Origin: an uncultured Bacilli bacterium
GTDB taxonomy: Bacteria > Bacillota_I > Bacilli_A > RF39 > UBA660
Assembly (NCBI GenBank): GCA_934131005.1
Contig: CAKOYV010000004.1
Location: 37,344-101,343, forward strand
Length of the DNA stretch: 64,000 bases
Reading direction: 5' to 3'
Shown here: piece after piece, positions 19,552-60,545 of the stretch
Position numbering within the stretch: the stretch's first letter is position 1
How the letters are laid out: every line of letters starts with the position of its first letter
Made by a program: the position numbers and the translations under genes
The notes under the pieces: model-generated
Seen by the model: only the letters and a program-made list of their open reading frames with translations
What the model was told of the DNA's origin: nothing
The model's database searches: none

Positions 19552-20250
19552 ATGTTTTTTAATATTTTAAATCTAATTTTGCAAAATATGTCTTTCTTTG
19601 GCAGTTACTCTAATGAAATGTTCCCCAAACCATTAACTGCTAAAGAAGAACAAAAATATATAAAAAAAATGCAAGAAGGTGATAAAGAAGCCCGCAATAA
19701 ATTAATTGAACATAATCTTAGATTAGTTGCCCATATCGTAAAAAAGTTTGAAACAACCACTAATGACATTGATGACTTAATAGGAATAGGCACTGTAGGA
19801 TTAATCAAAGGTATTGATACCTACTCTCCCGACAAAAAGGTAAAACTAACAACTTATGCCGCTAAATGTGCCGAAAACGAAATTCTCATGTACTTTCGCA
19901 GCAACAAAAAAAACTCCAAAAATATAAGTATTTATGAAGGCATAAGTTATGATAAAGAAGGAAATGAAATAACCATATTAGATGTCTTAAAAACCAAAGA
20001 TCCCGATTACTTAGAAGATATCTATATCAAAGATAATATTGAATTATTAAAAAAATATCTAAGAATATTAACTCCTCGCGAAAGAAAAATAATAAACATG
20101 CGTTACGGACTAAATAACCAAGAAGAAAGAACTCAAAAAGAAATTTCTAAAATAATGGGAATATCTAGAAGTTACGTATCTAGAATTGAAAAAAGAGCCA
20201 TCACTAAAATTTTAAGAGAATTCATAAAAAATAAGAATTATAGCGATTAA
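19552..20250 (+). CDS. sigK: Sporulation sigma factor, pro-sigma-K-like
   Basis: About 20-aa pro-sequence, then FPKPLTAKEEQKYI (compare the FPQPLS processing region of SigK). NLRLVAHIVKKF and YAAKCAENEILMYFRSNKK. Gene is intact, with no intervening element. Confidence 0.65.
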   Translation: MFFNILNLILQNMSFFGSYSNEMFPKPLTAKEEQKYIKKMQEGDKEARNKLIEHNLRLVAHIVKKFETTTNDIDDLIGIGTVGLIKGIDTYSPDKKVKLTTYAAKCAENEILMYFRSNKKNSKNISIYEGISYDKEGNEITILDVLKTKDPDYLEDIYIKDNIELLKKYLRILTPRERKIINMRYGLNNQEERTQKEISKIMGISRSYVSRIEKRAITKILREFIKNKNYSD

Positions 20251-20260
20251 ACTATAATTC

Positions 20261-21330
20261 TTACTTTTTTTCTCCAAAATGCTTTATTGGACTCAATATT
20301 TTATACTTCTCACACTTATCTCCATTCAAAGTATAAACCTTTGAACAACTATATTCCGCTTTAGCATCCTTCTTATCATTAAGAACACACGTATTTCCCG
20401 CTAAGGCATAACCATCACTACATTCAAATCCCTTTATAGCATCAGCTGTTATTGTAGCAACACACTGATCTCCCTTAAGTTCTAATCCACCAGCACAATA
20501 ATATTTAGGACTTGGCTGAATAGAAGATGTTGTAATACATTGATTACCATAAGTCTGATAACCAGATGGACAACTATATTTAACTGTTGCTGGTATAGTT
20601 ACACTATAAACACAACTGCCACCACTCAAACTACCATTAGAACAATAAGAACTACCACGATTATAACTAGCATCCTTATAACATTGAGTACCACTCTTAG
20701 TATATCCATATGGACATTCACAAGTTGTAGTTGTAGAACTTTGACATCCAGGATAATATGGGTTATATCTACAAATATAAGAATTATTATATCCCCCACC
20801 ACTTGTTGAACAAGTAGCATTTCTATAGCACTTACTTCCAGACAATGTATCACCACTACTACAACTATATCCCCCACCACTAGTAATTGGAGAACTATAT
20901 TCCGTCTTACTACATTTATTTCCAGACAAAGTATAACCAGATGGACAACTGTAACTAGCACTAGCTGTTTTATTACTAGCTGTAGAACACTTATTATCAT
21001 ATAAAATATAACCAGATGGACAAGTATAAGTAACAGCAGCCTTTGTCTTCTGTTCCTGAATACATTTATCCCCCTCTAATCTTCCAAGTCCAGCACATTG
21101 ATAAGCTTGCTTAGCATCCTTAGTATCGCTCTTTAAACATACCTTATCCTGTAAAGTATAACCATCATCACAAACATATTTAACATTAGCATCAATAGAT
21201 TTCAATGTTTTACTACATTTATTATTTTTATTTAAAGAATAACCCTTATCACAAGTATACCAACCCTTAACACAAAGACCATAATTATTTATATAACCCT
21301 TATCACATTTTTTAGTACTAAAAACACATC
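20261..21330 (-). repeat. Coding tandem repeats: about 13 Cys-bounded 12-residue loops (C-x-x-G-Y-x-L-x-G/N-x-K/Q-C) in the kinase ectodomain
   Basis: Examples: CDKGYSLNKNNKC, CDDGYTLQDKVC, CPSGYTLSGNKC, CPSGYQTYGNQC, CSDGYALAGNTC. Confidence 0.7.
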
Positions 21331-22549
21331 CCTTTAATAACAACAAAAGCAAAATAATTAAAATACCTATAATAATATTTTTTCTATTATCAATATAAAA
21401 TTGCTTATCAGATAATTTTTCTCTTAATTCAACAATAGAATCAATAATTTTTTCACAAATATTATCCTCACCAAAAATACTTTCCTTTTTATCAATAATT
21501 TTATTCAAAAACTTATCATAAATAAAACCATGTCGCCTATTACTAGCAGTTTTATTATTATCAACAGCTACACTACTATCTACATTGCTATTAGACAAAC
21601 GATTAACATCATAAATACTAATAGTTTTATTCGAACCAATTATATTTTGAGCATCCTTATTTGCAATAGAATTATCATCCCCATTATCAGTCAAAAAACG
21701 CTTCAAAGCCCCCTTCATAACACTAACATCTTTATATCTATCAGTAACATAAAAAGCACAAGCATTAAAAATAATCGTCATCAAATCATTGCTAACACCC
21801 TTAATAATAGGAATAACAGAGCCAGACATTCTAAGCTTAAAAGCCATTTTATCACTAACAAACAAACCAACAAAAGGCAACTTACCTCTATTCAAGAATT
21901 GATACATAACAAGCCCTAAAGAATAAAGATCAGCACTATTAGTAATATTCTCATTATTATAAACTTCAGGAGCCACATAAAGACAATTATTATCAATTTT
22001 ATCTAAAACACCAAAATCTCCTAACTTATACTTACCATCACTACCTATAAAAATATTATTTGGTTTAATATTTTTATGAACTATTCCATATTTTTTCAAA
22101 AACTCTAGTGCATTACAAATATCAATTCCCATTTGAGCAATATCATTAACCAAAAGTTTTTTATTATTAAAATCTCCTAAAACTTCAGAAACTAATTCCA
22201 TTCTTAGATAAACATCATATCCCACTCCATCTCGATGTGGCTCCTGATAATAATCATAATAATTTAATATATATTGATTATTATATCTTCTAATAATATC
22301 AAAATCTTTTTTTAATTCATCTAATATTTTTTTATAATAATCATTGGCTTCATTTCTTGATTTTATTAATCCTAGACGTATTAATTCATCTATATCACCA
22401 GTTGTTTTAGGAAAGCTAATATACTTAATAGCACTATAAACATTAGCATTTCCATTATTTTTAACAGCTTTATAAACTTCTCCTGTACTACCTTCACCTA
22501 TTTTATCAACAATCTGCCAGCCATCCCATAAAACTCTTCTCATATTCAC
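20261..22549 (-). CDS. Hanks-type Ser/Thr protein kinase homolog (HRD->HKN variant) with TM segment and extracellular Cys-bounded repeat domain
   Basis: IGEGSTGEVYKA, AIK, DFG and APE are present. The catalytic loop reads VHKNIKPNN. TM segment IIIGILIILLLLLL. About 13 C-x2-G-Y-x-L-x-G-x-K-C units in the C-terminal part. Confidence 0.85.
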   Translation of the reverse strand: MNMRRVLWDGWQIVDKIGEGSTGEVYKAVKNNGNANVYSAIKYISFPKTTGDIDELIRLGLIKSRNEANDYYKKILDELKKDFDIIRRYNNQYILNYYDYYQEPHRDGVGYDVYLRMELVSEVLGDFNNKKLLVNDIAQMGIDICNALEFLKKYGIVHKNIKPNNIFIGSDGKYKLGDFGVLDKIDNNCLYVAPEVYNNENITNSADLYSLGLVMYQFLNRGKLPFVGLFVSDKMAFKLRMSGSVIPIIKGVSNDLMTIIFNACAFYVTDRYKDVSVMKGALKRFLTDNGDDNSIANKDAQNIIGSNKTISIYDVNRLSNSNVDSSVAVDNNKTASNRRHGFIYDKFLNKIIDKKESIFGEDNICEKIIDSIVELREKLSDKQFYIDNRKNIIIGILIILLLLLLKGCVFSTKKCDKGYINNYGLCVKGWYTCDKGYSLNKNNKCSKTLKSIDANVKYVCDDGYTLQDKVCLKSDTKDAKQAYQCAGLGRLEGDKCIQEQKTKAAVTYTCPSGYILYDNKCSTASNKTASASYSCPSGYTLSGNKCSKTEYSSPITSGGGYSCSSGDTLSGSKCYRNATCSTSGGGYNNSYICRYNPYYPGCQSSTTTTCECPYGYTKSGTQCYKDASYNRGSSYCSNGSLSGGSCVYSVTIPATVKYSCPSGYQTYGNQCITTSSIQPSPKYYCAGGLELKGDQCVATITADAIKGFECSDGYALAGNTCVLNDKKDAKAEYSCSKVYTLNGDKCEKYKILSPIKHFGEKK

Positions 22550-24876
22550 CTCCTATTATTTAATTGTCTTCTTAACAAGAAATAGCACGCTACTAAAATT
22601 ACCAATCCCATTAAAACTATAATTTTAATATCATTCATATAATGTACTTTTGTAAAAATAAAATAATCTTCAGGATCCCTCTCATAACTAGGTTGCAATT
22701 TTTGAATTTCATTAGGCATACTATTCAAATCGCATGTAATACCAAAAAGTTGAATAGCCCATCTATCTAAAATAAATACCGATAATTTTTCTAAAACTCC
22801 ATCAAGTGGCAAAAAAGAACCATTTAAAACAAGTTGAGGTATAAGTGTAATTGGCGCTAACATAACAGCATTAGATGAATTTTTAGAAATTGCTGACAAA
22901 AACAAACCTAAACAAGTTGAACAAACTGTTATTAAGAAAAACGAGCCCATCATCTCAAGAGGCCAATTAGTCATTATTCCATCATCCGGAACAAAACCAA
23001 AGAAATACATAAAAACAGAAATAAATAGCACCGACTGAATCAAACACAAAATAATTTGAATCCATAATTTTGATGCAAAATATGCCGACAATTTCAAATC
23101 TGCCATATATTCTCGCTTCAAAATTGATCTTTCTTTACAAATAACTTGAATAGAATTAAGCGTTCCTAACCAAATTGCTGCTATTGTCATCGCAAACAAC
23201 ATCATTTTTGTCGTTTCATACCCCTCAAACATATCATCAGGAGCAACTAATGCAAACATATAGGCAATAAATGGAGACTGTAATAACAATAAAAGTAACA
23301 TCTGCCTATCATTCAAAATAGTTTTTGCATATCTCTTAGATAAAGTAATAAACTGTTTCATAAAAGATCTCTTATTTCTTCCCTGTTTAACAAAACTATT
23401 AGAACTCTTACGGACTACTACTTTCTCACAATATGCTGAATTATTATAAGCATTATACCATTTATTAACATCACTACTAATCAAATTATAAATATCAACA
23501 AAATCATTAACCCCAAAAAAATTAAGTGTATCCCTTGGTGAGCCCGCAAAACAAAGCTTTCCTCCTTCACCAAAGAAACAAATTTTATCACATAAATGCA
23601 AATTCAAAGTATTATGTGTTACTAAAATAATTGTCTTCCCACTAGCAGCCATCTTTTTCAAAATATTCATCAAACTTCTCTCTGTACCAGGATCAAGACC
23701 GCTAGTAGGTTCATCTAGGAAAAACAATTTAGGATCTGCTAATAACTCAACAGCTATACTAGCTCTCTTTCTCTGACCACCAGAAAGATTTCTAATCATA
23801 ACATCTTTTTTAGTTGTTAGCTCTACTATCTCTAAAACTTCTTTTATTCTTTTGTTCTTCTCATCCATTGTAGCATCATCTGGCATTCTTAAATTAGCCG
23901 AATATTTCAACATATCATATAAAGTTAAATCTTTAAAAACAATATCATCTTGAGGAACATAACCAATAATTTTCTTCAAAACAGCATAATTTTTAAATAA
24001 ATCATTACCATTAACATAAACATGACCACTCGTTGGACGTGAAACTCCACTAATACAATTCATAAAAGTACTCTTACCAGCACCAGAGCCACCAACAAGT
24101 GCAACAAATTCCCCAGGTTTAATAGATAAATTAACATGATAAGAAATATCTCTTTTTTTTCCTTTAACACTAACAGTTTTAACTATATCAACTGCATCAA
24201 CTCCAACACCTCGATCATACATTTGATAAAAAATTCTTCCCTTATCATATATCAACTTAGCATCTGCAATTAAAATAACATCTCTTTCTTTTAAAACCAC
24301 TTGTCCCTTTAATAAATAGCCATTAACAAGAATACTACTAGTAGGATCATTAGAAACTAAAATGAATTTATCACCATTCTTATAAATATTAGCAATATTA
24401 AGTGCAACACTAACATGATGAAGAACTATATCTGATTTAACATCTCTACCAATAGACACAACATCTTTAGAATTTAAATCAAACTGCTGCCAAGCATCAA
24501 CATTTTCTCCCAAAGAAATTATCATAATTACTCCTATTGCAAGAGGAGAAGCAGGATTATCTATCTTAATAGCATCACCATCTCGTAAATAAATTTCACT
24601 TACTCTATTATTATTCACAAAAATTCCATTTATACTATTATTATCAACAACTTTAAGTTTATCATCAACAAATTCAAAAAAACCATGATTAGGAGAAACT
24701 AATAAAGAATTCAATATAATATCATTATTACTATTCCTTCCAAACAAAATTCTTTTTTTTCTAAATTTATTTAAAACTATATTTTTAATGTTATTTTCTT
24801 CAATTATAGTAACTGTATATTTTACATCCTTTTTTAAAGAAGAATTAGCTATAACCTCGCTCATTTTACCAGCCAC
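22546..24876 (-). CDS. ABC transporter (NBD-TMD fusion, ABC-2/ABCG-like) with two N-terminal FHA domains
   Basis: Two FHA signatures (GR...S..H...NG). Walker A GGSGAGKST, ABC signature LSGGQRKR, Walker B FFLDEPTSGLD. Six C-terminal TM helices. Stop overlaps the kinase start by 4 nt. Confidence 0.85.
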   Translation of the reverse strand: MAGKMSEVIANSSLKKDVKYTVTIIEENNIKNIVLNKFRKKRILFGRNSNNDIILNSLLVSPNHGFFEFVDDKLKVVDNNSINGIFVNNNRVSEIYLRDGDAIKIDNPASPLAIGVIMIISLGENVDAWQQFDLNSKDVVSIGRDVKSDIVLHHVSVALNIANIYKNGDKFILVSNDPTSSILVNGYLLKGQVVLKERDVILIADAKLIYDKGRIFYQMYDRGVGVDAVDIVKTVSVKGKKRDISYHVNLSIKPGEFVALVGGSGAGKSTFMNCISGVSRPTSGHVYVNGNDLFKNYAVLKKIIGYVPQDDIVFKDLTLYDMLKYSANLRMPDDATMDEKNKRIKEVLEIVELTTKKDVMIRNLSGGQRKRASIAVELLADPKLFFLDEPTSGLDPGTERSLMNILKKMAASGKTIILVTHNTLNLHLCDKICFFGEGGKLCFAGSPRDTLNFFGVNDFVDIYNLISSDVNKWYNAYNNSAYCEKVVVRKSSNSFVKQGRNKRSFMKQFITLSKRYAKTILNDRQMLLLLLLQSPFIAYMFALVAPDDMFEGYETTKMMLFAMTIAAIWLGTLNSIQVICKERSILKREYMADLKLSAYFASKLWIQIILCLIQSVLFISVFMYFFGFVPDDGIMTNWPLEMMGSFFLITVCSTCLGLFLSAISKNSSNAVMLAPITLIPQLVLNGSFLPLDGVLEKLSVFILDRWAIQLFGITCDLNSMPNEIQKLQPSYERDPEDYFIFTKVHYMNDIKIIVLMGLVILVACYFLLRRQLNNRR

Positions 24877-24980
24877 CTATTTCTACCATAATATTAACAA
24901 TATTATAACATTTATCTATTAACAAATCAATTCTAAACATGAAGAAAAAACAGAGTTTTAACAACCCCATCTTTTCATCT

Positions 24981-26480
24981 TTATTTAAATAATCCTTTAA
25001 AGAAATTTTTAATATTATTAACTATTCCCTTGTTACTAGTATTAGTATTGCTACTACTTGTATCCCTCATATTTACCTGATTCAAGAAACTAGTAACTTT
25101 ATTTTTATATTCCTCTTTATGTTGTCCAACAATTATAAATGCATGTGGAGAACCGTCAGGTCTATATTGTTCTACAACATTACTATTACTAATAACAGTA
25201 TCAGCATTACTAGGAGGAACAGTAGTATCACCACTACCATGAATTACCATAACTTTAACATTACTATCCGCACGTCTTCCATTCCCAAAAGCATCTTGAT
25301 AATTATCAAAGTTATTACTACTCAAACCAGTTTTAATTAAATTACCTGTCAAAACTGTTTTTATTAATAAATTAACAGTATTAGTATTATCACCATTAAT
25401 TTTCAAGCTTCCCAAACTTCCTAAAGTATTACCACTAGATTTATTTGCTCCCCAAGACTTAAATCCACTACCATTACCAAATAATTCATTTGAATCACTA
25501 GAAATAGTATTCTTAGAACCACTAGTACTTGGTAACATTGAAGTTATAATACCTGTCATAGATGTATATCCACAATCATCAACAACTCCTACAACATTCT
25601 TACTAGATATCGATGGCATAGTTCCAACTCCTGTAACATTGACACCACCCATTGTCAAAGATTGAATAGTAGTAGCTCCTCCAAGAGAAATACCATGAAT
25701 TACAATTTTACTTGGTTTAGTATCCTTCTTAATATCACTACTTGTATTCAAATAATCCAACCAATTCATAACATCAAGACTCTCCAAAAATCCCATAGCA
25801 ACGCTACCATTACTACTACCAAATCCTCTCAAGTCAATTGCCAAAACATTAACATTATTATCTAAATACATTTTACCAACAGCACTAGCCATTGAATCAG
25901 CACTCATCATATTACCATGAACAAGTAATGCCCAATTATTAGAAGTTTTACTAGCATAATAAACATTAGCATGTAGCTGAACACAATAACTATTTTTATC
26001 CTTACCTGTAGCTGCAATAAACTTACAAACATTATCTGAACTAATTGTAACCTCACTATCAGGAGTCAACTTACTACCACCATTAAATAATCCCAAAATA
26101 CCATCAAAAAATGAATTTAAACTAAGGGTCATAGTGTTAACAAGCTCAACTGTACTATCATAATCATCTGTTACAGTAGTATTTAATAAATTATTAGCCA
26201 TATAATCTACTCCATCATCATTATGATATTTACTTTGTAAATTCTTTATCTCACTAGTGATTGTATGCTTAGCCAAACTAACAGACATATTAGAATCAAT
26301 ATTTTCTAAACAATCACCAACATCATATAAAAAATTTTGATAAATTTCTCCCTTACTCTCATCAAGAGCATTTTTATTATCTCTTATAGAAAACATTCCC
26401 ATTGAAAAAGATAATACAGATACAACACATAAAACAATAGCAACAATAATTATCCATTGTTTCTTACCAAATTTATTCAC
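24981..26480 (-). CDS. Membrane-anchored alpha/beta-hydrolase (esterase/lipase-like)
   Basis: N-terminal TM or signal segment. GxSxG nucleophile elbow (HGISLGG). 499 aa, Ser/Asn/Gly-rich. Confidence 0.65.
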   Translation of the reverse strand: MNKFGKKQWIIIVAIVLCVVSVLSFSMGMFSIRDNKNALDESKGEIYQNFLYDVGDCLENIDSNMSVSLAKHTITSEIKNLQSKYHNDDGVDYMANNLLNTTVTDDYDSTVELVNTMTLSLNSFFDGILGLFNGGSKLTPDSEVTISSDNVCKFIAATGKDKNSYCVQLHANVYYASKTSNNWALLVHGNMMSADSMASAVGKMYLDNNVNVLAIDLRGFGSSNGSVAMGFLESLDVMNWLDYLNTSSDIKKDTKPSKIVIHGISLGGATTIQSLTMGGVNVTGVGTMPSISSKNVVGVVDDCGYTSMTGIITSMLPSTSGSKNTISSDSNELFGNGSGFKSWGANKSSGNTLGSLGSLKINGDNTNTVNLLIKTVLTGNLIKTGLSSNNFDNYQDAFGNGRRADSNVKVMVIHGSGDTTVPPSNADTVISNSNVVEQYRPDGSPHAFIIVGQHKEEYKNKVTSFLNQVNMRDTSSSNTNTSNKGIVNNIKNFFKGLFK

Positions 26481-32583: not shown

Positions 32584-34746
32584 TTAACTATCAGAGAAGA
32601 AATCATCAAAGAAATCATCACTATTAGTTCCATTTTCATACATTGAACTATCCTTAACTTCTTTTTCTTCATTAATTTCAGCTTCAACAATAGAAGTCTT
32701 CTTTTCTTTCTTAGCCTCTTCCTCTTCTTCCTTCTTCTCTTCATCTTCCAAAGCAGCTATCTTAGCTTCTATCTTTTTAACTAAATCATCATAATCATCA
32801 AGCTTAAGAGATGGCATTTTACTATCCCCCTCATCATCCTTATCACTATCTGCTGAAGGCAAACTAGGACTAGATTCAAACGGAGAACCACCTGATGCAA
32901 ATGGATTTGAGCCAAATGGATTAGATCCAAACGGATTCGAACCAAACGGATTTGAGCCAAACGGATTTCCACCTGCAAATGGATTATTAAAAGCACCTGC
33001 ACCATCAGATGATGAAGACATCATTTTCTCCATTTGCTCTTTCTTTTTCTGTTTCATAAATTCTCTTATATCAAATAATTGAACTTCTTTTTTCTCTCTA
33101 GTTATATATTTAGCTTTCCCATAACTCTCGTGCCACGAATTCATTTCTGTCATTTTCCAATTGGGCGTTAATTTAGTCTTAAAAGGCATCATACGAAGAC
33201 GCAACCAAATTACTTGCCCCATTGGCATTCTTTGTAAATCACTAACAGTAACAAGAGGTGTTGAAGAAGTTTTCTCTTTTTCTTTCGATTTAACTTCACC
33301 ACACATTTTACTAAGTTCCTCTAAAGCCTGAAGCTCACTACTAATCAAATAAAGAATATTACAGTTACCCTTAATAGTTTCAGCATCTTCTTTACCATAA
33401 ACCTTAGTAAGTTGAGCAAAGTTTTGGATAATAAAGGTAAAACGAATATGCCTAGAACGAGCTGCCGTTACCATCGTAGTAACATCTTTAAGAGGTGGCA
33501 TATTAGCAAACTCATCCAGAATAAAATTAGTTCTATAAGGAAGATGTCCACCACTTTCTTGAGCAACATCTATTAAAGTTTCATAACACTGCTTGATAAA
33601 AATAGTTGCAAGAGGATGCAAAGTTTTCTTTTCATCTTGAACAATCATAAAAACGGCCGTTTTTTTCTTACCAATATCACTAATATTAAAATCACTATAA
33701 GATAACATTTCAGATAAATTATCACGTGATGCAAATAACTTAATCTTTTGCTTAAATGTAGATAAAACACCACCCTTTGTTTCCTCAGGCGCATAAACAG
33801 TACCAGATGCATTTACATAAGCAGGTTTAGCTGGATCCTTAAGTTTAAAATATTCTTTAATATAATTATTATTAGGACCTCCAAATTTCTCCTCACCTAA
33901 ATTAGACATTAAATTCATACTATTTAAGTTAATTTGTTCCATCGTAGCATCTTCAAATAATCCAAGAGCAAGTCCGCTAAAATAACTAGCAGCCGATTGT
34001 TCCCAAAAGGGATCACCAGTATTTTTCTCATCATAAAGAATATTAAGTGCCAAATCATCTATTAACTCAACAGCCTTATCAGAATTACCATTTTTATATA
34101 AATCATAAGGAAGTCTCATAGGATTCCAAGCATTCCCCTTTTGAGGATCACGAAAATTCAAAACAATAATATTATATCCCTTAGCCCTAAGCATCTCACT
34201 AGTCTCTTCATAAAGCTCACCCTTAGGATCAGTCAAAACCATAGACTCTCCAGCTTTAGCTAAAATCTTTATCATTGGAAATACAACATTTTGTGTCTTA
34301 CCACTACCAGTAGCACCAATAATCAAATTATGAGCCTCTCCATCATCAACCCATAACTTCTTACCATCATTAATAACCGCAATACCACCATATTCAGAAG
34401 TAGGAGCAGCCGGATCAATTTCCTTCAAAGTAGCCTTCATTTCCTTCTCCTTACACCATCTAGAATATCCTTTGTCTTTCTTCTTGGTAGTAAATCCAAA
34501 CCCTTTTTCACGATCAAAAAAATAAGAACTAACAGAGAACATAATTCCCATTAAAAATAAGAAAAAGAAAGTAAAAGTTGTCAATATATATTTAGAAGAA
34601 AAAGCCATAAAAGGAACAAAACCATATAACTTTCCCTCAGTTGCTAACGAATGTACATTCAAAACAGCAAGTGCACAGATATATAATAACAAGAAACAAA
34701 AACCAATAAAAATTTTAACATCCTTAGCATCTGCTCTAAATTTCAT
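32584..34746 (-). CDS. Type IV coupling protein homolog (VirD4/TraG/TraD family ATPase) with NPFGS repeat and acidic tail
   Basis: N-terminal TM helices. Walker A IIGATGSGKTQ followed by TDPKGELY (a T4CP hallmark). Walker B ILDEF. C-terminal region (NPFGS)x5, then a D/E-rich tail ending DDFFDDFFSDS. Confidence 0.7.
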   Translation of the reverse strand: MKFRADAKDVKIFIGFCFLLLYICALAVLNVHSLATEGKLYGFVPFMAFSSKYILTTFTFFFLFLMGIMFSVSSYFFDREKGFGFTTKKKDKGYSRWCKEKEMKATLKEIDPAAPTSEYGGIAVINDGKKLWVDDGEAHNLIIGATGSGKTQNVVFPMIKILAKAGESMVLTDPKGELYEETSEMLRAKGYNIIVLNFRDPQKGNAWNPMRLPYDLYKNGNSDKAVELIDDLALNILYDEKNTGDPFWEQSAASYFSGLALGLFEDATMEQINLNSMNLMSNLGEEKFGGPNNNYIKEYFKLKDPAKPAYVNASGTVYAPEETKGGVLSTFKQKIKLFASRDNLSEMLSYSDFNISDIGKKKTAVFMIVQDEKKTLHPLATIFIKQCYETLIDVAQESGGHLPYRTNFILDEFANMPPLKDVTTMVTAARSRHIRFTFIIQNFAQLTKVYGKEDAETIKGNCNILYLISSELQALEELSKMCGEVKSKEKEKTSSTPLVTVSDLQRMPMGQVIWLRLRMMPFKTKLTPNWKMTEMNSWHESYGKAKYITREKKEVQLFDIREFMKQKKKEQMEKMMSSSSDGAGAFNNPFAGGNPFGSNPFGSNPFGSNPFGSNPFASGGSPFESSPSLPSADSDKDDEGDSKMPSLKLDDYDDLVKKIEAKIAALEDEEKKEEEEEAKKEKKTSIVEAEINEEKEVKDSSMYENGTNSDDFFDDFFSDS
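32880..32992 (-). repeat. Tandem 15-nt coding repeats (NPFGS pentapeptide x5, with degenerate flanking copies) inside the T4CP-like gene; approximate bounds
   Basis: CCAAACGGATTYGAR-like unit repeated on the + strand. It translates as NPFAGGNPFGSNPFGSNPFGSNPFGSNPFASGGSPF. Confidence 0.7.
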
Positions 34747-34943
34747 TAATATCCCCTCCCTTAAAACAATAAATCATTAACTTGATTATATCACATAATA
34801 AGAAAACTATCAATTAATTTTCTCACCCCAAAGTTATCTATAAGTTATTAAACCTAAGAAATTCCCTTATATTTAAAAATAAATATTGTTTTTTATTTAC
34901 TTTTTTGCTATTATAGGTATGTGCTTTAGAAGGGAGGATATAA

Positions 34944-36455
34944 ATGAGTAAAGAAAAAACAAATAATAGTAATGATAAGAAAAATGTTGAAAAAAAGGAA
35001 ACAACTGCTAAAAAAACTAGTGCTAAAACTGCAAAGAAGACTAGTGCTAAAGCAGACAAAAAAGTTACTAAAACTAAATCTAAAGACACAAATAAAGAAA
35101 TAAAAAAAGGCAAAAAAATAGTAGAAGAAAAGATTATTGATGAAAAAATAATCGATGCTGATATTGATGAAGAATATGATGAAGATTTAGAAGACTTTAT
35201 CAATGAGGATGATGAGGAAGAAGAAGTTATCAAAGATAAGACACCTTCTAAAAAGAAAGAAGTAAAAAAAGAAGATAAACCTGAACCTAAAAAAATTAAA
35301 GAAGCCAAAAAAGAAAAAGAAGATAAGAATAAGGAAGATAAAATATCAAAAGAAAATATCAAAAAAATTGAAAAATTAGCTAAAGAAAAAAGTAAAAAGA
35401 ACAAGAAAAAAGCTAATAATTATAGCAAAATAAAAGATTTTGGATATTTCTTAGAAAAAAATCGTAATGTAATATCTAGTTTTATCGGTGGTGTACTATT
35501 AACAGTCTTAATCGTAATAATCATTTGGCCTAGCCGTATAGCAACTCTTAAAAATGGCACTCAACCAGTAGTAAAAGTTGCTAATAAAACATATACAGCT
35601 GATGATTTATATACTCAAATGAAAAATCATTACTCTGTAAGTCAACTATTAGACCAAATAGATAACGATATTCTAACAAAAATGTATCCAGAAGATAAAA
35701 AAATGACTGAAGAAGTAGAATCAAATGCTGAATACTATATCAATATGTATAAACAATATTATAATTACACAGAAGAAGAATTCTTATCTGCTAATGGTTT
35801 TGCTTCACGTGATGCATACTTAGAATACTTAAAACTAGATAATCGTCGTAAAAAATATCAAAATGAATATGTTAAGAAAAACTTAACTGATGACGAAATC
35901 AAAAAATATTATGACGAAAATGTTTACGGTGATATTAATTGTCAACACATACTAGTAGAAACAAAATCAGATGATTCAAAATCTAGTAGTAGTTCTAAGA
36001 ATAGTGATAGCAAAAACAAATTAAGTGATTCAGATGCTAAGAAATTAGCTCAAGAAATAATTGATAAAATCAATGATGGTAAATCTTGGAAAGATATCAA
36101 AAAAGAATACAAAGATAAAGTTACTTTCGAAGACTTAGGATACCAATCATGGGATTCTGACCTAGAAGATTCTTTCAAGAAAGCTCTTAAAAAGATGGAT
36201 AACAATTCTTACTCTAAAGAACCAGTTAAAACATCATATGGCTATCACGTAATATATCGTGTTGACCAAAAGAAAGCACCATCACTAAAGAAAACAAAAA
36301 GTAAAATTATTGAAAAATTAGTATCTAAAAAAGAAAGCGAAGATTCTAACTTACTATATAAAGCACTAATTAGCTTACGTAATGAAAAGAAAATCAAATT
36401 CCAAGATACTGATATGAAAGAAAAATACGAAAAATATATAAAACAATATAAATAA
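34944..36455 (+). CDS. prsA: PrsA-like parvulin-type peptidyl-prolyl isomerase with about 175-aa K/E-rich N-terminal extension and one TM helix
   Basis: Parvulin core (INCQHILVETK ... SYGYHVIY). A single TM helix (FIGGVLLTVLIVIIIW) follows a long low-complexity KKTSAK/EEKIID region. Confidence 0.7.
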   Translation: MSKEKTNNSNDKKNVEKKETTAKKTSAKTAKKTSAKADKKVTKTKSKDTNKEIKKGKKIVEEKIIDEKIIDADIDEEYDEDLEDFINEDDEEEEVIKDKTPSKKKEVKKEDKPEPKKIKEAKKEKEDKNKEDKISKENIKKIEKLAKEKSKKNKKKANNYSKIKDFGYFLEKNRNVISSFIGGVLLTVLIVIIIWPSRIATLKNGTQPVVKVANKTYTADDLYTQMKNHYSVSQLLDQIDNDILTKMYPEDKKMTEEVESNAEYYINMYKQYYNYTEEEFLSANGFASRDAYLEYLKLDNRRKKYQNEYVKKNLTDDEIKKYYDENVYGDINCQHILVETKSDDSKSSSSSKNSDSKNKLSDSDAKKLAQEIIDKINDGKSWKDIKKEYKDKVTFEDLGYQSWDSDLEDSFKKALKKMDNNSYSKEPVKTSYGYHVIYRVDQKKAPSLKKTKSKIIEKLVSKKESEDSNLLYKALISLRNEKKIKFQDTDMKEKYEKYIKQYK

Positions 36456-36486
36456 GAAGACTCGAAAAAAAGTCTTCTTTTTATTT
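36454..36486. terminator. Bidirectional rho-independent terminator
   Basis: Perfect 9-bp stem AAGAAGACT/AGTCTTCTT (36454-36462 / 36471-36479), loop CGAAAAAA, T-run. Confidence 0.65.
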
Positions 36487-36999
36487 AACAAAAATATCTA
36501 TAACAACCATCAAACACCCAATAATAACTGCTATTCCAAATAAAATTAACAAAATAACACCTATATTATTACTACTAGCCCGACTACTATTCCTTACCAA
36601 AACAGCACTTTTATCCTTAGTAACCCCATAAAATTTCATTATTTTCTCTATAACATCATTATCATAAGTAGCAACATAACATTTACTAGAACTAAATTTA
36701 TTAACCAAACTAAACTTAACATCTGAGAAAAACTTTACGCCATCATCTAGCAAAATCTGCCTATCACAACAATTAATAATTTTAGCAACCACTCGCTCTA
36801 AAGCCTCACGTTCATCACTAGTAAAATTACTATCCATCGTATATCCTTCACTATTAACAACCAATTTAGAAATAAAAATATTCCTCTGACTATTATCTCT
36901 CTTTACCGAATAAACAACATATATTAAATCACCATATCTAAAACAGAACATAACTAAACATTTCATTTTTACATTATTATCAACATCTATTATTTCCAT
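36481..36999 (-). CDS. Hypothetical protein with C-terminal TM anchor (172 aa)
   Basis: ORF with a C-terminal hydrophobic segment IGVILLILFGIAVIIGCLMVVI. Confidence 0.45.
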   Translation of the reverse strand: MEIIDVDNNVKMKCLVMFCFRYGDLIYVVYSVKRDNSQRNIFISKLVVNSEGYTMDSNFTSDEREALERVVAKIINCCDRQILLDDGVKFFSDVKFSLVNKFSSSKCYVATYDNDVIEKIMKFYGVTKDKSAVLVRNSSRASSNNIGVILLILFGIAVIIGCLMVVIDIFVK

Positions 37000-37023
37000 A
37001 AATCCATCTCCTACCCGACAATC

Positions 37024-38448
37024 CTAATCATTCATCTTAAGCACTTTCTTTTTCTGATTATCAACCAACTGCTTATTAACAATTAACTTATTTTTTATCA
37101 TATCCATCTTATACCTATTCTTATCAATACTATCTTGCATTTCTTCAATTTTCTGCAAACCTTCCCTAAAACCAACCATAGAATCATTATAATTACTAAG
37201 ATAATCATGCCTCAATCTATCAAGCATCCCCCTCGTATCATCAAGTAAAGCATAAGCATCATCTACATTATCTAATCCCTGATTAATCATCTTATCATAG
37301 CTATCTGGAACATAAACCTCTCTCTCTTTTTTTTCACTAACCATATAACTATATATATTTCTAATCATCCTCCTAGTAGCCAAAGTATCAATAATAATAC
37401 TAGGAACAAACCCTAATACCGGCGAAGCCATAAGTGTCCCTACATAAAAAGCACTAGAAGAAAGCAAACTATTAAGCCAAACCAACTTAGTATTAACCCG
37501 AATATCATTTCCAATGTTATTAACATTATTAATAACATAATTCAAATTATTATCTTGCCTCATTATCTCCTTGTCGCACTTTAACAATTCAAAATTAACT
37601 TTCTCAAAATCAACTCTTGTCTCCTCATTTCTCCTACCAAATTCTTCTTCTTGGGCATCAATCTGCGTAGCCACTTTATCATTATCATCTCTTAACTTCA
37701 CTAAATTAAAATAAATATCTCTATATTTATCAACAAGCGATCTATCTACATCAGCTGTATTATCAAGCTTATCAATAATTTCTTTATATCTAATAATATC
37801 ATCTGCTAAATCACCAGAATAATCATCTAAAATATCATAATCATCAGCCAAGTTATATTCCTTAATCAAGTCATTTACTCTATCCTTTAAATCACTAGAA
37901 TCCTTACGCAATTTACGAGCACCCTCAATACTTTTATTCTCTTTATTTTTATTTTCTATATTCTGACTCTCTTCTTCCAAAATTTCTGCTGAAGCTGAAG
38001 CTTTGTTAATCTCATCCTTCATTTTTCTAGTTATCTTTTTTTCAAGTTCCCTCTTCTCTTCATGAAGCCTTTTTTTCTCTAAATCTTGTTTTACAGCCTT
38101 TGCTTCTTTAATAACACCAACTCTTCTAATACCATAATCTCTATCACTACGAGTAGCTTTAACTCTATTTAAAACCCCTCGCAAAAACAATTTATTATTT
38201 CCATTCAAAATATATTTAACTATTTTTTTCCTAGCATTATTAAAAAAAGAAATAGAAACATTTTTTCTAACAACTACCCTACTCTTAGCTATTCTAACAT
38301 TTCCCCTATTAATAATAATGTTATCATTAGTTTTACTCTTAATTATAGCCTTGTATCTGTTTATTCTAATTAATCTCAATCTATCTCTAAACTTTCCTCT
38401 AACACCATCATTATTATTATCATCATTACTACCATTTATAATATTCAC
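37024..38448 (-). CDS. Hypothetical coiled-coil membrane protein (474 aa)
   Basis: Basic N-terminus. Long charged heptad-like region. Central hydrophobic hairpin (AFYVGTLMASPVLGFVPSIIIDTL). Confidence 0.5.
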   Translation of the reverse strand: MNIINGSNDDNNNDGVRGKFRDRLRLIRINRYKAIIKSKTNDNIIINRGNVRIAKSRVVVRKNVSISFFNNARKKIVKYILNGNNKLFLRGVLNRVKATRSDRDYGIRRVGVIKEAKAVKQDLEKKRLHEEKRELEKKITRKMKDEINKASASAEILEEESQNIENKNKENKSIEGARKLRKDSSDLKDRVNDLIKEYNLADDYDILDDYSGDLADDIIRYKEIIDKLDNTADVDRSLVDKYRDIYFNLVKLRDDNDKVATQIDAQEEEFGRRNEETRVDFEKVNFELLKCDKEIMRQDNNLNYVINNVNNIGNDIRVNTKLVWLNSLLSSSAFYVGTLMASPVLGFVPSIIIDTLATRRMIRNIYSYMVSEKKEREVYVPDSYDKMINQGLDNVDDAYALLDDTRGMLDRLRHDYLSNYNDSMVGFREGLQKIEEMQDSIDKNRYKMDMIKNKLIVNKQLVDNQKKKVLKMND

Positions 38449-38521
38449 TAGCCATCACCTCTTATGAACATATATAATACTCTAAATTCAAAAGAAATGC
38501 AATATAAAAATACTGCATCAA

Positions 38522-39490
38522 TTACTTATCACAAACTCGACTTCCCTTAGCAATTGTATAAGGATTAGAGCTAGTTCCATCGCCACCTGTAACATAAACC
38601 AAAGAAGAAAGCTTCAAAACAGGCCTAACGCCTAACTTATAACTACCCTTCAAACTTCTAACTGATCTATAATCAGCATCCCAATAATAATTATTATCCC
38701 CTTGACTACTATTAAACCAATAATATCCACCATTATCTAATAATTCATTATTATAACCACAAAGCGAATTACTAGTCAAAGATGAACAATCCGCAAAGCT
38801 TTTAAATTTACTACTATTTTTATCAGAATTAATCTTATCAAAATCATGTTCATTAATTAGCCAAACACTATTACTATCACATTTACCACGATATGCCAAA
38901 CTACTATTACAATACTTCTTCAAATTATCTATTAAAACACTATCATAATCAACGCAATCAACTGCACCAGCACTAATTAAATAGACATTACTCCCTTCAA
39001 TATAAGCAATTCTAAACCCATTAGAAGTAAATTTTCTATCACTATCACTCTTATAATATACTGAACCACTATAACCACAATACCCCATATTATTATCATC
39101 TACATAATTAGAATTATTAACACTACAACTAGCAGGATCATCAGACAAACAATACTTAACATAACTACCAACTGGAACATCACTAATTAACATTTCTGAA
39201 TTAAAATTCAAACTACAAGAAATACCACCTGTACTATTACCATTACTAAAATCAAGTGTATGTTTATCATTATCCCATTTAACCTTAGTAGCACTATTAC
39301 TACACTTATAACTAGTTAAATAATAATTACCACTACTAGGAATTTTATCACTATAAACACCATCAACACTAACCAATAATTTCTTACCATTATATTCAAC
39401 TGTCTTTGTAAATGTTCTATTAGTACCTATATTAAAGGAAAAAGCTATTATCACTACCAAAGGACATATTATTAATAAAAACTTCTTCAT
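38522..39490 (-). CDS. Secreted Cys-rich protein, paralog A (322 aa)
   Basis: Signal peptide. Shares the G(F/Y)R(I/V)AY(I/V)...VYLIS.GA..C and LCGY.N.LLDNGGYYW blocks with the adjacent gene. Confidence 0.6.
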   Translation of the reverse strand: MKKFLLIICPLVVIIAFSFNIGTNRTFTKTVEYNGKKLLVSVDGVYSDKIPSSGNYYLTSYKCSNSATKVKWDNDKHTLDFSNGNSTGGISCSLNFNSEMLISDVPVGSYVKYCLSDDPASCSVNNSNYVDDNNMGYCGYSGSVYYKSDSDRKFTSNGFRIAYIEGSNVYLISAGAVDCVDYDSVLIDNLKKYCNSSLAYRGKCDSNSVWLINEHDFDKINSDKNSSKFKSFADCSSLTSNSLCGYNNELLDNGGYYWFNSSQGDNNYYWDADYRSVRSLKGSYKLGVRPVLKLSSLVYVTGGDGTSSNPYTIAKGSRVCDK

Positions 39491-39503
39491 AAACTACCTC
39501 CCC

Positions 39504-40952
39504 TCAGACTCCCAATTTATATAAATCACTAGCACTACCACTGCCACTTTTTACATAAACACTACTATCTAGTCTAATAATAGCTCTTAATCCATAAGGA
39601 TATTCAACAGAATTATCACTAACATAACGCATAACTGGATCCCAATAAAATAACTTATTTCCATTATTACCAAAAATCCAATAATAACCACCATTATCCA
39701 ATAAATCATTACTATAGCCACATAACTTATCACTACTGCTTTTAAAACAACTATTATTACCTAACGACTTCCCACTTATTTTAGCAAAATCAGAAACATT
39801 AAAAAGTCTAATACTACCATTATCACATTTTCCACCATAAACATATTTACTATCACAATCTTCATCAATAACTTTTTTCAAAGAATTTGTATTATGATTA
39901 CTAACATTTCCCCCACTAGATGCTAGTGAAGAAGAAACTTTATTATTACCATCAGTTGCTACACATAAACTAGCCCCATTACTAATTAAATAAACGCTAC
40001 CATTATCTACATAAGCAACTCTATAACCCTTACCATAAAATTTTCTATCACCATTATAACAACTATCAACACCACCATTATTATTATAAGAAACATAATC
40101 TCCAACTTTTGCAACATCAGAAAATTTTACTTTTGCCTTAGAACGGCTCACAAAATTAACATCACAACTACTAGGTATCTTTCCTCCATTACCATTTACC
40201 CGAATTGTTTTTGTATCATTATCCCACGAAATAGCACTACCACAACTACTAGAAGTCATAGAATAATCTCCACTAGTAGGAATACTACTGCTCTTCTTAC
40301 CATCTATTTTAATTGAACTTATCTTAAAATCACTAGCACTATCATCTCTCGAAATAACATTAACACTAATAGTTCCTCTAAAAGTTTTATTCATCATATA
40401 ATTTTGATTTTCACCATTATCCAGCAAATAAACTCTTAATTCAAAATTATTATTACTACTACCATCAAGTAATATATTATCATCTATCTTTAACTCATCA
40501 CCTGTAAAAGTAGCAAAATCTCCCTTAGCAATAATATGACCATTATATAATAACTCATACTTAAAATTACTATCAACAAGTTCTTTATCTATACTAATAT
40601 CAATTAAACTAACTCCAACAACAACATCACGCTTTTTAGCATCTCCATTAACATCTACAGAAAAATCTGATCTTCCAACATCACTACTATCATCTATCTC
40701 ATCACAATTAACAGGAAGCCCTGTACTAGTATTAATATACTTACCAGACTTATACGCAACATCTATCAAATCATTATCAGTCTTAGTTTTAAACGAAGTA
40801 CTACCATTAGTAAAAGAATACCAAGCATAACTACTAGATAGCATTAAAACAAATATAACTATTACAAAGACAAATATAACACCTAAATACTTTTTAAAGC
40901 TCACGACTACCCACCTCCGTATTCTTCTACTATCTATACAAAATGATAACAT
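39504..40952 (-). CDS. Secreted Cys-rich protein, paralog B (up to 482 aa; start uncertain)
   Basis: Hydrophobic signal-like N-terminus. The C-terminal half is homologous to paralog A (KGYRVAYVDNGSVYLISNGASLC..., LCGYSNDLLDNGGYYW). Confidence 0.55.
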   Translation of the reverse strand: MLSFCIDSRRIRRWVVVSFKKYLGVIFVFVIVIFVLMLSSSYAWYSFTNGSTSFKTKTDNDLIDVAYKSGKYINTSTGLPVNCDEIDDSSDVGRSDFSVDVNGDAKKRDVVVGVSLIDISIDKELVDSNFKYELLYNGHIIAKGDFATFTGDELKIDDNILLDGSSNNNFELRVYLLDNGENQNYMMNKTFRGTISVNVISRDDSASDFKISSIKIDGKKSSSIPTSGDYSMTSSSCGSAISWDNDTKTIRVNGNGGKIPSSCDVNFVSRSKAKVKFSDVAKVGDYVSYNNNGGVDSCYNGDRKFYGKGYRVAYVDNGSVYLISNGASLCVATDGNNKVSSSLASSGGNVSNHNTNSLKKVIDEDCDSKYVYGGKCDNGSIRLFNVSDFAKISGKSLGNNSCFKSSSDKLCGYSNDLLDNGGYYWIFGNNGNKLFYWDPVMRYVSDNSVEYPYGLRAIIRLDSSVYVKSGSGSASDLYKLGV

Positions 40953-52017: not shown

Positions 52018-52093
52018 GGCCAATTGGTGAAGTGGTTAACACATAGCCCTCTCAAGGCTACATTCATGGGTTCAAATCCCATATTGGTCACCA
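52018..52093 (+). tRNA. tRNA-Glu, anticodon CUC
   Basis: Cloverleaf folded by hand: acceptor GGCCAAT/ATTGGTC, anticodon stem TAGCC/GGCTA, loop CTCTCAA, T-arm ATGGG-TTCAAAT-CCCAT, 3' ACCA. Backbone is near-identical in architecture to Bacillus tRNA-Glu. Confidence 0.8.
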
Positions 52094-58682: not shown

Positions 58683-60545
58683 TTACTCATTCATATTTTT
58701 ACTACTTAAACAATTATCTATTTTTTCCTTAATAATTTCTTTAGTAAATGGTTTTGTCACACAATCAGTAAAACCTAAAAGTTTATACTTTTCTTGTGCA
58801 CCGTTTATAGCATCAGCTGTCAATGCTATAACAGGAATATCAAAGTTGGGAATTTTTCTTAATTTATTCATAGCCGTTACTCCACTCATAACAGGCATCA
58901 TAATATCCATTAAAATAATATCATAATGATTTGCTTTTACCTTATTAATAGCTTCCTCACCATTATAACATTCATCTATCTTTTTAAAATTTAAAGAACT
59001 TATAGCTCGTTTAGCAACTTTAATATTAAGTTTATTATCATCAACTATTAGAATAGTTTTGTCCTGATAATTAATATCATTTGATTCTTGTTCAATTTTT
59101 GGAGAAGAAATATTTTCCAAATCCTTTTTAGTAGCTATTTTTTGAGGTAATGTCACCATAAACATTGATCCTTTACCAAAAGTAGATTCAACGTTTATTT
59201 TTCCACCTAATAACTCAACTAGTTTTTTGGTAATAGCAAGTCCCAAGCCAGTTCCCTCTGTTGTAGTATTTTTTTCAATATCTAAACGTTCAAATTTATG
59301 AAACAACTTATCTATATATTCCCTCTTTATACCTCGCCCACTATCTTTTACGGTCATAAATAATAAAGATACTCCCTTTTTATTTATACATTTTATATTT
59401 AATTCTATACTTCCTTCATCGGTATATTTAATTGCATTAGAAAGTAAATTGTTCAAAATTTGTTTTACATGTACTTTATCACCATTTAAATATTCTGGAA
59501 TATCCTGAGCAATATTTAACTTATAATTAATTGGTTTGGTACCTATTCTAGTTCCATTAATTTTAAATAAAGTTTCAACTTCCTCTTTAAAATTATAAAC
59601 TATCTCATTAATTTCTAATTTATCACTCTCAATTTTATTAATATCCATAATATTACCAACAATTTCAAGAAGTGTATGTGAAGCTGAGATAACATCATCA
59701 ACATCTTCTTTCATACTAGACGGTAACTTTTTGTTATCAGCCATATCTTCACATAATCCAACAATAGCATTTAGAGGCGTTCTTATTTCGTGAGACATGG
59801 AAGATAAAAAATCACTTTTTGCAGAATTGGCCTTTTCAGCTTGCTCCCTCGCTATATTTAAAGCTTCTATCATTTTAATATCAGGATTTTCAATAGTAAA
59901 ATACATTAAATTAGTCACAATTGCAAAAGAAGAAGAAATAATTAAAAAACCTGGATTAAATGCTCTTATAACTAGAGCTAAAATCATAACAAAAATAAAC
60001 ACTAAAACTGGAATATATTTTTTCTTTTCTTTATTTATTCTATTTGCATAACAAACTACCCAACTAATAAGATAAATTAAAACTATTACATATAATAAAT
60101 TTGCACTAACTCCATATGAATAAACAATATTATTTTGATTGTAATATTTAAGTGGTAAAAATAATAAAAGACTTATAACAACAAACCACAATATAACAAA
60201 AAACATACTACACTTTCTTTTCAAATTAAACTTATCTTCTTGTTTTTTAAATGAAATAGAATAAATATATAAAGTAAATAATGATTGCCACAAAAATATA
60301 ACAATTAAAAATACCCGATTAATCAATTCCGTTAAAAAAGGAATTTTATCCATATTAGATACTGTTACACAACAAAGTATTTCCATAATTAAATTTACAA
60401 TATTAACAATAATAAGACTTCCATACAAATCAGTTTCCAAATTATGAATTCTTTTTTTATTAAAATAAATAACACCAATAAAAATACTATAAAGCAAATT
60501 ACAAGCAATAATAGCTAGTCCTAAATACACAAAAAACACCTCCAT
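58683..60545 (-). CDS. Hybrid sensor histidine kinase (multi-TM sensor + HisKA + HATPase_c + C-terminal receiver)
   Basis: Six or seven N-terminal TM helices. H-box SHEIRTPLNAI. G-boxes DSGRGI / GTGLGLAI. Receiver ILIVDDN...DIILMDIMMP...TKPF. Confidence 0.85.
   Translation of the reverse strand: MEVFFVYLGLAIIACNLLYSIFIGVIYFNKKRIHNLETDLYGSLIIVNIVNLIMEILCCVTVSNMDKIPFLTELINRVFLIVIFLWQSLFTLYIYSISFKKQEDKFNLKRKCSMFFVILWFVVISLLLFLPLKYYNQNNIVYSYGVSANLLYVIVLIYLISWVVCYANRINKEKKKYIPVLVFIFVMILALVIRAFNPGFLIISSSFAIVTNLMYFTIENPDIKMIEALNIAREQAEKANSAKSDFLSSMSHEIRTPLNAIVGLCEDMADNKKLPSSMKEDVDDVISASHTLLEIVGNIMDINKIESDKLEINEIVYNFKEEVETLFKINGTRIGTKPINYKLNIAQDIPEYLNGDKVHVKQILNNLLSNAIKYTDEGSIELNIKCINKKGVSLLFMTVKDSGRGIKREYIDKLFHKFERLDIEKNTTTEGTGLGLAITKKLVELLGGKINVESTFGKGSMFMVTLPQKIATKKDLENISSPKIEQESNDINYQDKTILIVDDNKLNIKVAKRAISSLNFKKIDECYNGEEAINKVKANHYDIILMDIMMPVMSGVTAMNKLRKIPNFDIPVIALTADAINGAQEKYKLLGFTDCVTKPFTKEIIKEKIDNCLSSKNMNE

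Follow-up and report, generated by a model that had tools for sequence, protein, structure and literature searches.

What remains of a bacterial receptor kinase once its catalytic aspartate has been replaced, and what does such a protein do in the cell? The question is raised by a gene in a 64,000-nucleotide stretch of DNA from an uncultured Bacilli bacterium (contig CAKOYV010000004.1; the whole stretch is called the window below), which encodes a single-pass membrane protein with a Hanks-type kinase domain whose HRD motif reads HKN. Our answer, to which we assign a probability of roughly 60%, is that the protein is a ligand-sensing, catalytically impaired receptor scaffold. It would serve as the regulatory subunit of an envelope module that also comprises a hydrolase and an ATP-binding cassette (ABC) exporter bearing FHA domains, and docking to FHA would control the exporter.

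In the protein, a Hanks kinase domain is followed by a linker predicted to be disordered, a single transmembrane helix and a 352-residue ectodomain; residue numbers throughout are those of the 760-residue product that starts at the ATG at 22543. Pfam Pkinase (PF00069) matches the first of these with 93.8 bits against a cut-off of 31.7. In an AlphaFold2 (AF2) model of the full protein this region is a bilobal kinase domain, with a predicted local distance difference test (pLDDT) value mostly of 80–90 and template modelling scores (TM-scores) of 0.72–0.81 against the structures of PknB, PknA and Stk1. The glycine-rich loop (GEGSTG, residues 16–21), AIK (38–40), the catalytic loop VHKNIKPNN (155–163) with its Asn163, DFG (176–178) with Asp176 and APE (A191-P-E193) can all be recognized. 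Within the catalytic loop, the HRD Asp is replaced by Asn158 (codon AAT, 22072–22070). The salt bridge between the β3 Lys and the αC Glu has kept only one partner, Lys40, the Glu having become Asp80. The activation segment is down to 12 residues and the Gly-Thr of GTxxYxAPE is gone.

Among 5.8 billion proteins searched, 26 were full-length orthologues, 30–98% identical, below which came kinase-domain-only matches, nearly all of them HRD. We aligned these 26 with the window protein (27 sequences). The HRD position is Asn in the window protein and in P0001–P0005 (HKN, YKN, HGN, YKN and YKN, with HGN in P0003), and Asp in the other 21 (HKD, HRD, HND, HAD or HGD); we refer to the two groups as Asn-type and Asp-type. 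At the nucleotide level the codon is AAT in all Asn-type loci checked, namely the window, L001, L003, L009–L011, L013 and L020, and GAT in all five Asp-type loci checked. In a neighbour-joining tree built from the ectodomain alone, which carries no support values, the Asn-type proteins of the alignment form one monophyletic clade, sister to P0006–P0010 (HKD or HRD). The hosts are uncultured gut Bacilli, metagenome-assembled genomes labelled 'Firmicutes' and 'Mollicutes', and Clostridium sp. CAG:451.

A profile search of 1.84 billion representatives for further family members gave sequences that are nearly all HxD. The L020 protein, P0207, reads HNN; its KPxN has become NIDN, and its activation loop and APE are deleted. 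The P0207 ectodomain is 50% identical to that of its closest relative, P0205, and 39% identical to that of the window protein. Because P0205 keeps the HRD Asp, the Asp must have been lost at least twice. The alignments show the wider family to be predicted Hanks kinases, non-RD or RD, with all catalytic residues intact, and its position inside an otherwise catalytically complete family makes the Asn clade appear young.

Taking the kinase-domain positions that 19 or more of the 21 Asp-type members share, we then asked which are lost in the Asn clade. Only four are: E80, D158, G185 and T186. The last two are the P+1 Gly-Thr, present in 21/21 Asp-type members; every Asn-type member has the Gly deleted and the Thr replaced. 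The other 44 conserved positions are kept, including K40, N163, D176, F177 and P192/E193, with N163, D176, P192 and E193 invariant in 27/27 aligned sequences and GxGxxG intact in every member of the clade. Asn-type sequences score 68–94 bits against the Pkinase hidden Markov model, compared with 128–143 bits for Asp-type sequences. At matched ectodomain divergence (65–78% identity), the ratio of kinase to ectodomain identity is 0.61–0.85 for Asn–Asn pairs and 0.93–1.13 for Asp–Asp pairs, the exception among the latter being P0017/P0018 with 0.83. By these sequence measures, the kinase domain evolves faster in the Asn clade, under constraint that is relaxed but still present. Taken together, the pattern of loss and retention, the identity ratios, the model scores and the AF2 fold argue that the catalytic machinery was selectively stripped from a domain on which selection still acts.

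In bioinformatic terms, a pseudokinase is a kinase-fold protein without at least one of the VAIK Lys, the HRD Asp and the DFG Asp (PMC12599244, PMC4718504). Here the HRD Asp is lost, and the loss is conserved among orthologues: it is Asn throughout a monophyletic clade of six sequences, with HNN in the independent P0207. An earlier, sequence-only reading of the gene had listed GxGxxG, AIK, DFG, APE and one transmembrane helix, had placed the HKN codons CAT AAA AAT at 22070..22078 and had seen in them a pseudokinase signature. The motifs are borne out by the Pkinase match, the helix lies at residues 389–408 and the codon coordinates are exact. The signature itself gains support from the clade-specific Asn, the lost αC Glu and Gly-Thr, the faster evolution and the lower model score. 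A survey of homologues for HKN against HRD, which the same reading had suggested, confines Asn within the alignment to one clade with 6/27 of the sequences and finds Asp in the remaining 21/27. That reading had overlooked the Asp at the αC position, the shortened activation segment without its Gly-Thr and, as the most telling piece of context, the FHA-ABC gene next door.

The kinase gene does not stand alone. Besides the window and the P0207 locus, we compared 10 loci from metagenomes and 7 from species-representative genomes, 19 in total. In 19/19 the kinase gene directly follows a gene for an FHA-FHA-ABC protein, the two lying apart or overlapping by no more than about 10 nucleotides; in the window, the exporter stop codon lies 2 nucleotides ahead of the kinase start codon. 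A hydrolase gene adjoins the pair in 18/19 loci, and the remaining neighbours vary. The Walker A, signature and Walker B motifs of the exporter are all intact. The best Protein Data Bank (PDB) sequence matches of its first FHA domain, FHA1, are FHA2 and FHA1 of Rv1747 (6cah, E = 2.7e-8; 6ccd, E = 2.2e-6), an FHA-bearing ABC exporter of M. tuberculosis whose gene shares an operon with that of the kinase PknF, its positive regulator (PMC3138270). The canonical phosphothreonine-binding residues of FHA1 align to Rv1747 FHA2, and G-R, S-x-x-H and N-G are kept in 19/19 partners, including those of both pseudokinase lineages. FHA2 is divergent family-wide with no clade-specific pattern, and in the partner of P0207 it has also lost its Gly-Arg. 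The segment between the two domains, about 35 residues, is conserved and hydrophobic and holds no conserved Thr. We considered whether the partner FHA domains are degenerating in parallel with the kinase and rejected this: no such decay is seen for FHA1, and FHA2 is divergent across the whole family. A literature search for earlier accounts of an FHA-ABC gene paired with a kinase gene in Clostridia or Bacilli gave nothing specific.

A candidate link between kinase-fold protein and exporter lies in the juxtamembrane linker. This segment of about 100 residues, of which residues 289–365 have pLDDT < 50 and are predicted to be disordered, is unconserved except for a K-T-x-S-I-Y-D block. Thr307 of this block is present in 27/27 aligned sequences and Ile310 in 26/27, and Thr307 is still invariant after more distant members, P0207 among them, are added. 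In P0008 the linker is expanded and carries the motif three times, which fits a modular docking motif. FHA domains typically read a Thr with Ile or Val at +3 in a disordered segment.

We propose that the kinase-fold domain would still bind ATP/Mg and transfer phosphate poorly or not at all, acting instead as a ligand-controlled scaffold or conformational switch. The extracellular part, predicted to be a rod of disulfide-stapled hairpins, would sense a ligand from the envelope or the environment. On the inner side, Thr307 (T-x-x-I) of the disordered linker would, once phosphorylated, dock FHA1 of the exporter and so control export, by analogy with PknF–Rv1747. In Asp-type members the kinase could phosphorylate the Thr307 site itself. 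The Asn clade would need either residual activity or a separate Hanks kinase as the source of the phosphate, the latter route having a precedent in the pseudokinase MviN, which is phosphorylated in trans by PknB and then recruits FhaA (PMC12599244).

Several points weigh against this proposal. The protein may not be fully inactive, since HER3 and the JH2 domain of JAK2 (HGN) retain weak activity (PMC4718504). Within the 64-kb window we found no second Hanks kinase. The phosphorylation of Thr307 and its docking on FHA1 are predicted from conservation and from the general pT+3 preference of FHA domains. The exporter is without the long disordered inter-FHA linker that in Rv1747 bears the threonines targeted by PknF, so the analogy is architectural and not exact. 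Finally, the neighbour-joining trees carry no support values.

The first of these points leads to the alternative that survives best, a low-activity functional kinase: the HKN protein would have enough HER3- or JAK2-JH2-like activity left to phosphorylate its own juxtamembrane Thr, either in cis or within a dimer, making FHA1 signalling self-sufficient. HER3, in which Glu91 has become His and Asp166 Asn and in which the Lys, Asn and DFG Asp are kept, binds ATP with a Kd of ~1 µM and is weakly active, and JAK2 JH2 is similar (PMC4718504). The same ATP-binding residues, GxGxxG, K40, N163 and D176, are all kept in the Asn clade, as are T307 and the phosphothreonine-binding residues of FHA1, yet the clade has lost four catalytic positions together, the P+1 Gly-Thr among them, and some of its members have lost others as well: the DFG Gly in P0003–P0005 and the HRD His, which is Tyr in three. 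In the remaining clade members the αC residue is N, K, Q or Q, a scatter that suggests a position free to vary. The faster evolution of the domain, and the absence of the entire activation loop and APE from P0207, also count against retained catalysis, and we consider this alternative doubtful, although it is the most serious of the three that we weighed.

A second alternative is a scaffold that works independently of phosphorylation, the pseudokinase domain binding the tandem FHA domains directly. There is a parallel in type VIIb secretion, where the membrane pseudokinase YukC/EssB binds the tandem FHA of the ATPase YukB/EssC (PMC9600267), so that in both cases a membrane pseudokinase is paired with an ATPase carrying two N-terminal FHA domains; the family-wide degeneration of FHA2 is in keeping with it. 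However, the FHA domains of YukB/EssC have lost their phosphothreonine-binding residues (PMC9600267), whereas FHA1 keeps the canonical ones in 19/19 partners, and the invariant Thr in a predicted disordered linker points to a phospho-dependent linear motif. We regard this alternative as improbable.

The last, that the Asn is a sequencing or assembly error or marks a pseudogene in progress, has next to no chance of being right: one base change (GAT to AAT) would suffice, but an error at 22070–22078, the weak point named by the sequence-only reading, is excluded because the identical 760-residue protein is recorded in 82 blocks of the assembly collection and AAT recurs across the Asn-type loci (six more of the window's clade, with 56–98% protein identity, and L020, all with intact open reading frames), and decay is contradicted by the 44 conserved kinase positions and by ectodomains that are 65–85% identical within the clade.

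In the receptor scaffold that we favour the ectodomain would be the sensor, and it is built on a regular plan. It contains 13 regular C-x(9–11)-C loops and an irregular central Cys cluster at 578–610. The repeat period is 25 residues, in which a step of 11 residues from Cys to Cys is followed by a linker of 14; Cys pairs lie 25 residues apart 13 times, 50 apart 10 times and 75 apart 7 times. The raw count of C-x9–11-C matches, 14, is only moderately above that of shuffled sequences (6.65 ± 2.19); the repeat is well supported because its Cys are invariant across orthologues. The number of ectodomain Cys is even in all orthologues (24–30). An AF2 model computed from an alignment of 19 ectodomains has a pLDDT of 85 and a predicted TM-score (pTM) of 0.34. 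A low pTM with a good pLDDT is typical of an elongated molecule. The model is an all-β meander rod with strands of 3, 9 and 5 residues per 25-residue unit, with the C-x10-C stretch folded into a hairpin and the long strand extending into the next unit.

Pfam and NCBIfam searches with residues 409–760 gave nothing above threshold, and no significant fold match was found in the PDB. Candidate families were rejected one by one. PASTA has no PF03793 match, and the NF033483 model reaches 91 bits against a cut-off of 450, on the kinase domain only. The EGF-like family cEGF (PF12662) has no match in the window ectodomain, which has no six-Cys EGF unit, and Sushi, at 14.6 bits, stays below its cut-off of 20.7. 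The F-type TraN domain (PF06986) has no match in the window protein, which shares only the hairpin repeat with two proteins that carry the domain (P0198 and P0204). The sequence-only reading had pictured about 13 tandem 12-residue loops forming a novel ectodomain unlike PASTA. The number of loops and the contrast with PASTA hold; the loops are not contiguous, however, but recur every 25 residues. The ectodomain is novel in that it has no Pfam or NCBIfam family and no solved relative, but its repeat is found in 1,894 clusters. As for the structure prediction proposed there, the model places regular hairpins in each 25-residue unit, which fits disulfide-stapled hairpins.

Those 1,894 representative clusters were matched by a repeat profile at E ≤ 1e-3, 216 of them at E ≤ 1e-30. 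Repeat-bearing proteins include giants of 2,000–4,500 residues with up to 21 matched stretches, and some giants of this size have no Pfam annotation at all; the repeat was also noted in P0196. Elsewhere it occurs beside RsgI-like (anti-sigma factor), Flg_new, fn3 and cadherin-like domains, and in P0198 and P0204 it takes up the N-terminal region, ahead of the TraN domain. In the conjugation protein TraN itself, the porin of the recipient cell is bound by a tip that consists of a Cys-flanked β-hairpin (PMC9246713). Judged by this distribution, the repeat is an undescribed yet common putative surface-binding module, not unique to this kinase, although the 64-kb window holds no second copy of it. 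The cEGF model matches repeat-bearing relatives over positions 5–20 of 24 only, its C-terminal hairpin, and the C-P-x-G-Y-x-L-x-G-x-x-C of these relatives fits that hairpin. The difference lies in the unit, which here is predicted to have one disulfide-bounded hairpin per 25 residues and no six-Cys arrangement.

Table 1. Features of the pseudokinase locus in the window, with the gene of the second pseudokinase lineage (last line)
Feature	Position	Strand	Remark
Receptor pseudokinase gene	20261..22543	−	760 residues from ATG 22543; stop codon 20261–20263
Ectodomain, residues 409–760	20264..21319	−	30 Cys; 13 C-x9–11-C hairpins; 25-residue period
Transmembrane helix, single, residues 389–408	21320..21379	−	Transmembrane prediction and AF2 model
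Motif K306-T-I-S-I-Y-D312	21608..21628	−	Candidate pT-x-x-I/V docking site for FHA1
Hanks-type kinase-fold domain, residues 8–283	21695..22522	−	Pfam PF00069 and AF2 model
DFG to APE, residues 176–193	21965..22018	−	DFG Asp and APE kept; activation segment shortened
Catalytic-loop codons CAT AAA AAT (His156-Lys157-Asn158)	22070..22078	−	HRD Asp replaced by Asn
αC position, Asp80	22304..22306	−	Glu in 21/21 Asp-type orthologues
β3 Lys40 (AIK)	22424..22426	−	Retained; family-invariant
FHA-FHA-ABC exporter gene	22546..24864	−	ATP-binding domain and ABC-2 membrane domain
Exporter FHA2, approximate limits	24262..24459	−	Divergent; canonical His and, in the window, Asn replaced
Exporter FHA1	24562..24747	−	Canonical G-R, S-x-x-H and N-G present
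Terminator-like hairpin (24976–24944), then promoter-like TG-extended −10 site (24930–24902)	24902..24976	−	Consensus matches only
α/β hydrolase gene	24981..26480	−	Upstream of exporter gene; N-terminal transmembrane anchor; GxSxG is HGISLGG
P0207 gene, independent pseudokinase lineage	L020, 7001–8911		Between FHA-ABC gene and hydrolase gene

An open reading frame is present at 20261..22549 (−), and a program-made list of reading frames starts it at a GTG at 22549. AGGAGG lies 5 nucleotides ahead of the ATG at 22543 and overlaps the TGA (22546–22548) of the upstream gene; since the GTG falls within this ribosome-binding site, the ATG is the more likely true start, giving a 760-residue product. 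The same ATG is used by gene callers for the identical protein in public assemblies. On the opposite strand, a gene for a 232-residue sigma factor (Sigma70_r2 and r4; 19552–20250, +) converges on the kinase gene, with 10 nucleotides between the stop codons. In L020, genes for SpoIIGA- and SpoIVB-type peptidases lie close to a similar sigma gene, and their presence in related loci suggests spore-forming hosts.

Upstream of the exporter gene, the terminator-like and promoter-like pair in Table 1 may make the ABC and kinase genes a two-gene transcription unit of their own; in the scan that found it, counts of promoter and terminator matches were no higher than in shuffled sequence. Envelope-type genes recur among the variable neighbours of the module: PGM/PMM-family and hexapeptide-repeat genes lie in the near-identical L001, L006 has MurJ together with an S66 peptidase, and L008 has VanY alongside a PBP5-type peptidase. 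That neighbours are often genes of cell-envelope metabolism is a weak hint of an envelope role.

Other parts of the window hold features of separate interest. A type IV secretion coupling protein (T4SS-DNA_transf/TraG-D_C) is encoded at 32584–34746 (−), and beside it are long open reading frames without Pfam match at 34944–36455 (+), 37024–38448 (−) and 39504–40952 (−), and both GC and AT skew break locally at 34–36 kb; the region 32584–40952 may be the remnant of an integrative conjugative element. A hybrid histidine kinase gene (HisKA-HATPase_c-receiver; 58683–60545, −) adjoins a gene for an AMP-binding enzyme (60594–62441) and is unrelated to the pseudokinase. The sole Rfam match in the 64 kb is a tRNA-Glu (CTC) at 52018–52093 (+), on the strand opposite to almost all genes of the window.

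Bacterial pseudokinases are few and almost unstudied, and in the present family an apparently young clade and the independent P0207 lineage have lost only catalytic residues and keep the ATP site. Because close, active-looking sisters with 55–57% overall identity exist, the transition from kinase to pseudokinase can be tested directly, and Thr307 provides a concrete candidate docking site. The conserved FHA-ABC partner would extend to gut Bacilli the principle of FHA-mediated control of an exporter by a kinase, known from PknF and Rv1747. The ectodomain repeat is present in some 1,900 clusters without a family definition or a solved structure, and defining it would annotate many surface proteins. 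A broader view, which we hold tentatively and regard as possible rather than probable, is that in this family an active receptor Ser/Thr kinase has, at least twice and independently, become a HER3-like pseudokinase that binds ATP and is still coupled to FHA1 through an invariant juxtamembrane phosphothreonine motif. It would then be intermediate between the phosphorylation-driven PknF–Rv1747 type and the phosphorylation-independent YukC–YukB type, and the hairpin rod would be a widespread extracellular module for sensing and binding.

Among known systems, PknF–Rv1747 is the closest in layout. In both, the gene of a single-pass membrane kinase adjoins that of an exporter with two N-terminal FHA domains, ATP-binding and ABC-2/ABCG-like membrane domains, and control of the exporter through phosphothreonine–FHA recognition is predicted here. 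The present module differs in that the ABC gene precedes the kinase gene, a hydrolase gene is conserved along with them, and the module occurs in uncultured gut Bacilli instead of Actinobacteria. The kinase also carries a large Cys-hairpin ectodomain and, in the Asn clade, has lost catalytic residues.

With HER3 and the JH2 domains of JAK kinases, which are eukaryotic receptor-linked pseudokinases, the Asn clade shares the change of the catalytic Asp to Asn and the loss of the αC Glu. As in them, the β3 Lys, catalytic-loop Asn and DFG Asp are retained, and the HGN of P0003 is the very motif found in JAK2 JH2. HER3 (ErbB3) is, moreover, a single-pass receptor with an extracellular Cys-rich domain. 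The likeness is one of unrelated origin, however, since the nearest structures here are bacterial PknB-like Ser/Thr kinases, and the partner is an FHA-bearing ABC transporter, not a kinase-active paralogue.

Two groups of bacterial systems were examined as possible homes for the protein and rejected. Models of the anti-phage kinase systems MAD6 and PglW score far below their cut-offs, on the kinase domain only. The EssB/YukC type VIIb pseudokinases are degraded in all three catalytic motifs and in the glycine-rich loop, whereas the Lys, DFG Asp and GxGxxG are retained here, and no type VII secretion genes are annotated in the flanks of related loci. The described bacterial pseudokinases (MviN/ActPs3, ActPs1/2, GLW, CP1, DYD, DLHK and EssB/YukC; PMC12599244, bioRxiv 10.1101/2025.01.12.632604, PMC9600267) resemble the window protein in being membrane-associated and in having impaired catalytic motifs. 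In each of these seven catalogued families, however, some or all members have another residue in place of the ATP-binding Lys, whereas the Asn clade keeps its ATP site. It also differs from them as a recent offshoot within a catalytically intact family, with an architecture, the Cys-hairpin rod, and a gene neighbourhood of its own. On these sequence comparisons, the Asn clade is a different kind of bacterial pseudokinase.

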